NCBI RefSeq assembly: GCF_053078305.1
Contig: NZ_CP166879.1
Strand: one strand, 5' to 3'
DNA: 64,000 bases
The position numbers were made by a program, and so were the translations under genes. Below, piece by piece: positions 27,161-29,805 of this stretch; position 1 is the stretch's first letter; each line of letters starts with the position of its first letter. The notes beneath the pieces were generated by a model. The model did not search any database. It worked only from the letters and a program-made list of their open reading frames with translations, and had not been told where the DNA came from.

Positions 27161-27837
27161 GCAAATACACCGAACTAATCACGAACTACCACGCCACCAA
27201 ACCTAAATTTCTTGCGCATGTTGATCTGATGACCCGGCCGCTTATTGATGTTGCGGCTGCCACCAGAGGGCTGATTACTGCATTTGATATTGACTCTGCG
27301 GTTGGTGTGCAACTTGACATTCTGGGATTGTGGATCGGACGTAGCCGTGTTGTCAGCCAGCCTATCTCAGGTGTCTATTTCAGCTGGGATACCGACGGGC
27401 TTGGATATGATCAGGGGGTATGGCAGGGACCATACGATCCTGATTCCGGATACATGTACCTCAGCGATGAAACTTATCGTGTCATTCTTAAAGCGAAGAT
27501 TGCGATTAATAACTGGGATGGACGGAATGATTCGCTTCCGGCAATTCTTGACGCTGCAACAGCAGGATCCGGGCTGCGAATGCAGATAGTCGATAACCAG
27601 GACATGACGATATCGGTCTGGGTCTTTCCTGATACTGATATTTCAGATGTATCGCGTGAGTTAATTGCGGCAATTAAACAGGGGTATCTCACAGTAAAAG
27701 CCGCCGGGGTATGGGCGGGTGGCATTGAAACACCTTCGGTGGAAACCCCATCGGAAGGCTCAAAATTTTTTGGTTTTGATATGGATAACGAATTCATCAG
27801 TGGTTTTGATGTAGGAGCATGGGGAGTATTACTCTGA
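27157..27837 (+). CDS. Tail/baseplate protein (gpI-like)
   Basis: 226 aa; gene order. Confidence 0.5.
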   Translation: MSKYTELITNYHATKPKFLAHVDLMTRPLIDVAAATRGLITAFDIDSAVGVQLDILGLWIGRSRVVSQPISGVYFSWDTDGLGYDQGVWQGPYDPDSGYMYLSDETYRVILKAKIAINNWDGRNDSLPAILDAATAGSGLRMQIVDNQDMTISVWVFPDTDISDVSRELIAAIKQGYLTVKAAGVWAGGIETPSVETPSEGSKFFGFDMDNEFISGFDVGAWGVLL

Positions 27838-28292
27838 TGGCGAAAAATGACTTTAAAGCGTTTGCAACGGATCGAAATGCCAATGTTATATCGCAGGAGG
27901 AATGGGAAGCGTTGCCCGCGCTTTTATCCGGATTTACAGCAGGGAAAGCCTCCAGTGCGCAAGTCAATAAGGTTATTCGGCAGGTCAGCTTTATTGCTGC
28001 AGCTCTGGCCCAGTTTGTAAGTGATAAAACGCAACGGGATGTGCTTGATAATGGTGATCTGCCCGGTTTTGTTGAATTGCTGGGATCGGGGTTTGCTGTT
28101 GAATACCTGAGCCGCAAGAATCCGTTTGGTGATATCAAATCGGATGGCACGGTGAAAACGGCTCTCGAAAACCTTGGTTTGGGAGAAGAGCACAGCGTTA
28201 AGCCGGGTTGTTTCTGCCTGCGTCAGCTTCCGCCCGGCCTGCAATTTCAGCTGAATCAGACTAATGGAAGCCATAGCCGCATCAATCAGTGA
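27837..28292 (+). CDS. Tail fibre, constant N-terminal part, fused in the present orientation to only 34 codons beyond the crossover site
   Basis: ATG 27837 overlaps gpI stop; reads through site at 28162-28187 (N-L-G-L-G-E) and stops at 28290. Confidence 0.6.
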   Translation: [151 protein letters not shown]

Positions 28293-28715
28293 CTGGCGCC
28301 GTACTTCTGCCGCGTCTACTGCGGCGTTATGCTGTGCCTCAGTGTCGGTCACCCATTTCTCACCATCCCATTTATCGTATGACGTTAACGGGGCGATAGT
28401 GGTTGTATTTTCAGGGTAATCACCCGGAACTGTGATTTCTTTTGATTCTCCTGTTTCGGTGCTATAGACGATTTCACCGCGATGGTCTGGCACATATTCC
28501 CATGAGTTAAAATCTGCAGAACGGCAAATTGCATAACCAGCTTTATATGAGCCAGGAGCATCTAAACAGGAACATGCCGGGATACCGACACCCACAGCAA
28601 GATATTCAGTTGATGTGGAAATATATTCCCGTGTTTCACCATCATAATTATAAACGGTAATGTCTCCGGCCTTTGTGGCGATGAGTTCATTATTTAATAC
28701 AGCTTTACTTATCAT
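27924..28715 (-). CDS. Tail fibre assembly protein (Tfa/U-like); in this orientation the frame reads through the crossover site into antisense of the fibre gene
   Basis: ATG at 28715 overlaps stop of variable fibre cassette (ATGA); native C-terminus probably near the site at 28187. Confidence 0.5.
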   Translation of the reverse strand: MISKAVLNNELIATKAGDITVYNYDGETREYISTSTEYLAVGVGIPACSCLDAPGSYKAGYAICRSADFNSWEYVPDHRGEIVYSTETGESKEITVPGDYPENTTTIAPLTSYDKWDGEKWVTDTEAQHNAAVDAAEVRRQSLIDAAMASISLIQLKLQAGRKLTQAETTRLNAVLFSQTKVFESRFHRAIRFDITKRILAAQVFNSKPRSQQFNKTGQITIIKHIPLRFITYKLGQSCSNKADLPNNLIDLRTGGFPCCKSG

Positions 28716-29196
28716 GCAGCCCTCACAATATAATTAAAGGCGATGTTACGGGAGCGGGTTTCAGATGCTGTGCGAACTGAGCGAGATGCGTCGAATGTCC
28801 AGTTATAAGCGCCATAACCCTCAATAATTTCGGCTTCCTTTAGACCTGTAGATAATACTTGCCCATGTTGACTAAATGGCCCTGAACTAAGTACGTCTCT
28901 AAAAAGCTGGGTACGCCCAAAAGAACCAACAATATTCTGAATTGCATCATTCTGTGCAGATAATAAGTTACGACCAGAGTCAATCCCGCGCCCATCATCC
29001 CAGCCACGAATAAATTCACCGCGTAAATCTGGTAATTTTAATGTTGGGTAAGCCTTTGCCAGATTTGGGTACTTTTCAGAAGAAAATACTGCTCCGTTAC
29101 ATTTTAGCCACCCCATTGGCGGAGTGGCTGAAGGCCACGGAACAGGCACACCAACCGGTAATGCAGAGCCTTCTCCCAAACCAACGTTTATGAAAA
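28162..29196. mobile_element. Invertible DNA segment (about 1 kb) flanked by inverted 26-bp Pin/Gin/Hin-type crossover sites at 28162-28187 and 29171-29196
   Basis: Perfect 14-bp inverted core TTCTCCCAAACCAA (29171-29184) and its reverse complement TTGGTTTGGGAGAA (28174-28187); invertase gene adjacent. Confidence 0.75.
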
Positions 29197-29224
29197 TGCA
29201 GAAATAACGAGCAAATGGCATCAT
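28712..29224 (-). CDS. Variable C-terminal tail-fibre cassette (receptor-binding part) in the silent orientation
   Basis: Same N-V-G-L-G-E junction frame across site 29171-29196 as the constant part; first 12 codons lie outside the segment. Confidence 0.6.
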   Translation of the reverse strand: MMPFARYFCIFINVGLGEGSALPVGVPVPWPSATPPMGWLKCNGAVFSSEKYPNLAKAYPTLKLPDLRGEFIRGWDDGRGIDSGRNLLSAQNDAIQNIVGSFGRTQLFRDVLSSGPFSQHGQVLSTGLKEAEIIEGYGAYNWTFDASRSVRTASETRSRNIAFNYIVRAA

Positions 29225-29250
29225 TCCTGCTTTTGTCAGGGAGATCTACC

Positions 29251-29805
29251 ATGCTTATTGGCTATGTACGCGTATCAACAAATGACCAGAATACCGATCT
29301 ACAACGTAATGCGTTGAACTGTGCAGGATGCGAGCTGATTTTTGAAGACAAGATAAGCGGTACAAAGTCCGAAAGGCCGGGACTGAAAAAACTGCTCAGG
29401 ACATTATCGGCAGGTGACACTCTGGTTGTCTGGAAGCTGGATCGGCTGGGGCGTAGTATGCGGCATCTGGTCATTCTGGTTGAGGAGTTGCGCGAACGTG
29501 GCGTTAATTTTCGCAGCCTGACGGATGCTATTGATACCAGCACACCGATGGGGCGTTTTTTCTTTCATGTGATGGGGGCCCTGGCTGAAATGGAACGAGA
29601 ACTGATTGTTGAACGAACAAAAGCTGGACTGGAAGCTGCTCGCGCACAGGGACGAATTGGTGGACGTCGTCCCAAACTTACACCAGAACAATGGGCGCAG
29701 GCCGGGCGACTAATTGCATCAGGAGTTCCTCGCCAGAAGGTGGCGATCATTTATGATGTTGGCGTATCGACTTTGTATAAGAAGTTTCCGGTCGGAGATA
29801 AATGA
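29251..29805 (+). CDS. pin: Serine DNA invertase, Pin/Gin/Cin/Hin family
   Basis: MLIGYVRVSTNDQ with catalytic Ser; C-terminal HTH; 184 aa; adjacent to crossover site. Confidence 0.9.
   Translation: MLIGYVRVSTNDQNTDLQRNALNCAGCELIFEDKISGTKSERPGLKKLLRTLSAGDTLVVWKLDRLGRSMRHLVILVEELRERGVNFRSLTDAIDTSTPMGRFFFHVMGALAEMERELIVERTKAGLEAARAQGRIGGRRPKLTPEQWAQAGRLIASGVPRQKVAIIYDVGVSTLYKKFPVGDK

Follow-up and report, generated by a model that had tools for sequence, protein, structure and literature searches.

In the G segment of phage Mu and the C segment of phage P1, a serine invertase (Gin and Cin, respectively) flips a stretch of DNA within the tail-fibre gene, whereby the receptor-binding C-terminus of the fibre is swapped together with its chaperone. 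Hin, a member of the same invertase family, acts on the H segment of Salmonella, which is about 1 kb long and has a true on/off outcome. In Escherichia coli K-12, the cryptic prophage e14 carries the invertible P segment together with its invertase PinE, reportedly described by Plasterk and van de Putte in 1985. Here, we analyse a stretch of 64,000 nt (the window) from contig NZ_CP166879.1 of the NCBI RefSeq assembly GCF_053078305.1, in which a tail-fibre gene, two inverted crossover sites and the adjacent invertase gene pin form a segment of this kind. We consider it highly probable that the locus is an e14-type Pin fibre switch in an E. coli prophage, which recently lost 936 bp comprising one cassette and the end of tfa', the fibre assembly gene of the other cassette. 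It is the long-known Pin/e14 fibre-inversion system in a decayed copy, and not a new type of switch.

With the e14 P segment, the window shares the order of constant fibre part, left site, segment, right site and pin, and its retained cassette is a homologue of e14 stfE-tfaE. In contrast to the window, where the segment measures 1007 bp and holds one cassette with a truncated tfaE, the e14 segment is 1797 bp long and contains two (stfP/tfaP and stfE/tfaE). The rest of the prophage and the constant fibre part are unrelated to e14, save for 26 residues before the crossover site, which are all that the constant part has in common with e14 StfP. Far more similar is a family of prophages located at yfhH/murR (E. 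coli 48, CD45, TL20, A16 and OkiPb01695). Their flanks are 97-100% identical to the window in nucleotide sequence, and they carry the same constant part, variable fibre part (Sv'), tfa', pin and sites. Unlike the window, these relatives keep a second cassette, consisting of Sv1 and tfa1, and a full tfa' of 200 amino acids (aa); these 936 bp are missing here. The Salmonella H segment has the same size as the ~1-kb segment of the window, but Hin moves a promoter and its gene lies inside the segment, whereas the window swaps coding sequence and pin lies outside. Mu G and P1 C, whose mechanism is also discussed in PMC4272514, belong to other phages with other site sequences and two functional cassettes.

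The locus comprises the following features (coordinates are those of the window):

27837-28175, plus strand: constant N-terminal fibre part, codons 1-113, ending ...KTALENL at the crossover dinucleotide
27837-28292, plus strand: fibre open reading frame (ORF) in the present (off) orientation, 151 aa, made up of 117 genuine residues and 34 antisense tfa' residues, followed by a stop
28162-28187, plus strand: left 26-bp crossover site, CTCTCGAAAACC-TT-GGTTTGGGAGAA, central TT at 28174-28175
28176-29182, no strand: invertible DNA between the central dinucleotides, 1007 bp
28188-28189, no strand: deletion junction, GGGAGAAG followed directly by AGCACAGCG
28189-28715, minus strand: tfa', encoding a TfaE-like chaperone for tail-fibre assembly, of which native codons 1-175 remain
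28712-29182, minus strand: Sv', variable StfE-like C-terminal part of the fibre with a tail Collar domain, silent in the present orientation
29171-29196, plus strand: right 26-bp crossover site, TTCTCCCAAACC-AA-CGTTTATGAAAA, central AA at 29183-29184
29251-29805, plus strand: pin, serine DNA invertase of 184 aa, starting MLIGYVRVSTNDQ, with catalytic Ser9; intact

A repeat search revealed inverted arms of 20 nt at 28169-28188 and 29170-29189, which are complementary at 19 of 20 positions and have 981 nt between them. With up to 3 mismatches allowed, these two were the only inverted-repeat matches in the window (expected number 0, based on 100 shuffles), and no third crossover site was found there at the same threshold. 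Read as its reverse complement, the right site is TTTTCATAAACG-TT-GGTTTGGGAGAA. It agrees with the left site at 20 of 26 positions, including a perfect run of 14 bp (15 bp with the next G). The two sites are inverted relative to each other and their central dinucleotides match (TT, and AA on the plus strand). In a direct comparison with the e14 P segment of K-12, the left sites proved identical, as did the right sites.

The invertase itself is 95.7% identical in protein sequence to K-12 PinE, and the first ~240 nt of its gene are ~97% identical to e14 pinE. Pin matches phrog_125 (DNA invertase, E = 4e-97) and is identical to the Pin protein of E. coli 48, which carries PF00239 and PF02796 (Resolvase catalytic domain and HTH_7). 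An earlier note on this DNA, made from its sequence, had proposed a Pin-type invertible fibre segment of about 1 kb beside pin, bounded by two 26-bp sites with a perfect 14-bp inverted core. The repeat search, the alignment of the sites and their identity with e14, together with the close match of Pin to PinE, confirm this description.

In the present orientation, the fibre ORF crosses the left site in frame (...E-N-L-G-L-G-E) and meets a stop at 28292, 34 codons past the site. Counted from the ATG at 27837, the start annotated in relatives, the product has 151 aa; an in-frame ATG at 27819 would extend it to 157 aa. The constant part is 100% identical to that of E. coli 48 and 99.6-99.7% identical to those of CD45 and OkiPb01695, and phrog_11303 (tail fibre) matches fibre residues 1-122. 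The exact 151-aa product is absent from a collection of 15 billion proteins. As the segment lies now, a fibre stub of 151 aa would be expected from the late operon.

Inverting 28176-29182 in silico at the central dinucleotides produces a single ORF of 269 aa, in which ...AAAACCTT is joined to GGTTTGGGAGAAGGCTCTGCATTACC with the junction in register. The predicted 269-aa fibre is an exact match to KFD75474.1, encoded on a 1.42-Mb contig of E. coli 48. TL20 carries the same fused arrangement, with 99% nucleotide identity over 1,670 nt in one aligned piece. ORF analysis and this match agree with what the earlier note had read from the locus: a constant part that passes the left site and ends 34 codons later, a segment currently in the off orientation with the fibre truncated, and junction codons in register, such that inversion restores a complete fibre. 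The note had also raised the question whether the 34-codon tail is related to fibre domains. It shows no homology to fibres and is the antisense strand of tfa'.

Both orientations of the segment occur in close relatives. In the assembly of E. coli 48 (GCA_000736735.1), the locus is present twice, on the 1.42-Mb contig JPQG01000003.1 and on the 17.6-kb contig JPQG01000017.1, and the 1.96-kb segment points in opposite directions on the two. The 17.6-kb contig has identical flanks, including yfhH and a HAD-family gene, and the break points are located in the repeats. The simplest reading is that the sequenced culture of strain 48 held both orientations. The homologous segment is likewise inverted between CD45 and TL20, again with breaks inside the repeats. 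Among complete genomes with at least 80% coverage, 32 are of the off type, in which the cassette is silent and located beside pin, and 47 are of the on type, in which it is fused to the constant part. For the e14 segment, inversion has been documented in ordinary cultures (PMC4272514, PMC12529663). Because both sites and pin are intact, the shortened 1007-bp segment should still be flippable. Flipping would then alternate between the truncated fibre and the full-length 269-aa fibre, in combination with a crippled chaperone.

Decay of the locus is nevertheless frequent among the relatives. In TL20, 00_3230 and CFS3292, pin is truncated beside an otherwise complete two-cassette segment (loci L005 6686-6808, L008 3854-4120 and L003 5460-5552), and these segments show naturally locked switches. 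Together with the loss of the active cassette from the prophage in the window, this would be compatible with a frozen remnant, in which the segment no longer inverts and the fibre gene is dead within a decaying prophage. However, a length of about 1 kb is also that of the Salmonella H segment, and pin is of full length here and encodes the same protein as in strain 48, whose assembly has both orientations. Neither site differs from its e14 counterpart, for which inversion in culture is documented (PMC4272514). We therefore regard a frozen remnant as unlikely.

Relative to strain 48 and CD45, exactly 936 bp are absent between 28188 and 28189. The missing DNA consists of Sv1 (a gp53-like C-terminus), the whole of tfa1 and the 3'-terminal 25 codons of the convergent tfa', and it is present as second-cassette DNA in strain 48, CD45, OkiPb01695 and A16. 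The closest relative is strain 48, a Shiga toxin-producing E. coli (STEC) isolate from roe deer (PMC5323612), which matches positions 23000-28188 of the window with 0 mismatches in 5,189 nt, positions 29170-32711 with 99.97% identity and the segment with 99.9%. Two convergent cassettes were found in every relative opened, namely CD45, OkiPb01695, A16, TL20, DX6, 00_3230, phage pro483 and eight draft or metagenome contigs. The two alternative cassettes of a Pin-type segment are present in all relatives examined, and only Sv'-tfa' is present in the window.

The junction left by the deletion was found nowhere else. Of 5,426 complete E. coli genomes, not one covers the 121-bp stretch that spans it, a 29-mer across it occurs neither in GTDB representative genomes nor in JGI metagenomes, and the collection of 15 billion proteins contains none of the junction-specific proteins. 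Since, in addition, the flanks of strain 48 are near-identical, the single-cassette state is best interpreted as a recent private deletion and not as an ancestral or conserved design. The shortfall of one cassette would accordingly be a secondary loss and does not appear to reflect a different ancestry.

Two options had been left by the earlier note, a deleted second cassette or an on/off design, and alignment to related prophages had been suggested to find the second cassette. With this cassette in all relatives opened and 936 bp gone here, the first option stands, while the on/off behaviour is a by-product of the deletion. An evolved single-cassette switch, by which Pin-driven phase variation of the fibre would serve regulated bet-hedging, agrees formally with two orientations that give a complete and a truncated fibre, and with intact sites and an intact pin. 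Yet the arrangement is private to this genome, two cassettes are found in every relative examined, and the flanks of the two-cassette strain 48 are 100% identical, so that the change must be very recent. Moreover, the same event cut off the conserved end of tfa', which looks like damage and not like design. Such a purpose-built switch is extremely unlikely.

We propose that the ancestral segment contained convergent Sv1-tfa1 and Sv'-tfa' cassettes between two sites inside the fibre frame. A flip by Pin would have joined either Sv1 or Sv' to the 113 constant codons, to be expressed with its own chaperone. A recent 936-bp deletion would then have taken Sv1, tfa1 and the last 25 codons of tfa', sparing the sites, Sv' and pin. 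The segment now lies such that the fibre is reduced to the 151-aa stub, and a further inversion would yield the 269-aa fibre.

The cassette that was retained did not escape unharmed. Sv' is 59% identical to e14 StfE, and tfa', which starts at 28715, is translationally coupled to it. The Tfa' product is 89.7% identical to e14 TfaE over the 174 retained aa and matches phrog_105. That the opposite strand of the segment encodes a fibre C-terminus and a coupled assembly protein, as previously noted, is correct in so far as both are found and are coupled; tfa', however, is not intact. Its product has lost the last 25 residues, DYIDAVTATDxSTAPDVIWPELPEA. Without its own 3' end and stop codon, the tfa' ORF continues through the left site and the antisense strand of the constant part to 27924, giving 263 aa instead of 200. 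After inversion, it would enter the pin leader and reach 224 aa.

The lost residues are conserved. An LDYxDA...APDxxWP motif is fully present in 9 of 10 full-length Tfa proteins compared, which represent both cassette types and four phage backgrounds, and the tenth has a slight variant. In the intact 200-aa Tfa', the Caudo_TAP domain (PF02413) spans residues 79-200 and model positions 1-131 of 131. The native sequence in the window ends at residue 175, leaving the domain incomplete and the motif gone. A passage in PMC9608196, which cites North et al. 2019, attributes trimerisation and the assembly of fibres to the conserved C-terminal domain of Tfa. Tfa' is thus predicted to be damaged in both orientations. 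After inversion, the protein would end in 49 unrelated residues in place of the conserved C-terminal motif, and fibres would probably assemble poorly in the absence of complementation by a Tfa from another prophage. In this STEC-related lineage, the particles made by the prophage are predicted to have no fibres or to be poorly equipped with them.

On the minus strand, Sv' is part of a longer orphan ORF (MMPFARYFCIFINVGLGE...) at 28712-29224, whose ATG at 29224 is located in the spacer that separates the right site from pin. The exact protein in its 169-aa form is found on 14 contigs of the protein collection (20 carrying contigs were examined), and RefSeq labels it 'phage tail protein' in relatives. 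StfE2 of e14, the equivalent pin-proximal chimera after inversion, has been reported to block adsorption of phage T2 (PMC12529663).

The end points of the deletion are peculiar in their placement. The left end lies one base past the 26-bp site, where the homology between the two sites stops, and the right end coincides with the codon boundary between L175 and D176 of tfa', where the C-terminal Tfa motif begins. Comparison of the junction with relatives revealed no microhomology at the ends. Some E. coli matches had seemed to run 12 nt past the site, as a microhomology-mediated deletion would have it. The 12-nt extension in CFS3292, however, is a chance likeness between GCTCAGCGTTA (the start of a StfE-type Sv) and GCACAGCGTTA (antisense tfa'), one base out of register. 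A deletion catalysed by Pin between the left site and a quasi-site in tfa' was rejected as well: crossover at the central dinucleotide would leave a hybrid site, but both sites are ancestral, and the ancestral GTCAATGTAATCC at the right break is unlike a half-site. Standard invertase chemistry provides no mechanism for the placement, which may be a coincidence. It seems improbable that the deletion was non-random and arose by invertase-associated loss or turnover of cassettes, for example from a break that was processed up to the Pin-bound site. If this were true, crossover sites would be natural boundaries for the loss and gain of fibre cassettes. That the deletion lies beside a crossover site is of minor interest, with a possible bearing on the exchange of fibre cassettes.

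Several points weigh against a recently shortened, still functional e14-type switch. Inversion of the remaining 1007 bp by Pin is very likely still possible, but for this strain the conclusion is drawn from sequence, as is the probable impairment of the truncated Tfa', which follows from comparison with its homologues. The 5' part of pin would be expected to contain a Fis enhancer, but a simple scan for Fis motifs gave no match there. A left end one base past the site, without microhomology, is not what plain illegitimate recombination would lead one to expect.

Finally, the strain could in reality possess two cassettes, with the gap having arisen from the assembly of reads in mixed orientation. 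The uniqueness of the junction would be in line with such an artefact, and so would the nearest relative, strain 48, whose assembly yielded two contigs for the locus, one per orientation. Strain 48 was probably sequenced with PacBio, as were five related strains in PMC5323612, and the split of its assembly by orientation indicates that mixed populations do disturb assembly at this locus. Against an artefact, no repeat or k-mer is common across the junction that could mislead an assembler. The deletion is clean and the sequence to either side of it perfect, and a joint of this kind could not arise by inversion alone. An assembly error is decidedly unlikely, and we retain the recent 936-bp deletion from an e14-type switch as the explanation of the locus.

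The deletion is of little importance beyond annotation. It does illustrate that one deletion is enough for a classical host-range switch to degenerate into a make-or-break one. At such a locus, RefSeq-style calls can mislead, as here the genes called would include a 151-aa 'tail protein', a 263-aa 'assembly protein' and a 169-aa orphan fibre ORF. In relatives, the corresponding genes carry the RefSeq names pinE and tfaE. NCBIfam returned nothing useful for the fibre, tfa or neighbouring ORFs.

The prophage, a structurally complete myovirus inserted beside yfhH/murR in E. coli, carries the locus at its right end. Its genes for packaging, head, sheath, tube, tape measure and baseplate follow the order seen in the E. 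coli A16 prophage, with the same ORF sizes. Directly upstream of the fibre gene lies a baseplate gene:

27157-27837, plus strand: baseplate wedge gene (DUF2612 / Phage_Wedge1)

It overlaps the fibre gene at TGATG, which combines its stop codon with the start codon of the fibre. The assignment is supported by the DUF2612 annotation in relatives, by a match to phrog_587, and by PF11041 on the identical protein of E. coli 48 (JPQG01000003.1).

Between pin and yfhH/murR, at the end of the prophage, the minus strand of 29886-30935 contains ORFs of 215 and 113 aa with a G+C content of 30-39%. The 113-aa ORF had no match in PADLOC, the sole database checked for it. The 215-aa ORF, for which no NCBIfam, PHROG or PADLOC family was found, also occurs in A16 and OkiPb01695. 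A second such stretch is located at 23951-24795, amid the baseplate genes. It comprises two ORFs of low G+C content (39-42%), a 111-aa ORF whose N-terminus resembles a signal peptide and a 170-aa ORF, neither of which matched PADLOC. The stretch shows no homology to the content of A16 at the same spot, where TL20 has a HEPN-domain gene, and looks like an accessory-gene hotspot in the tail module.

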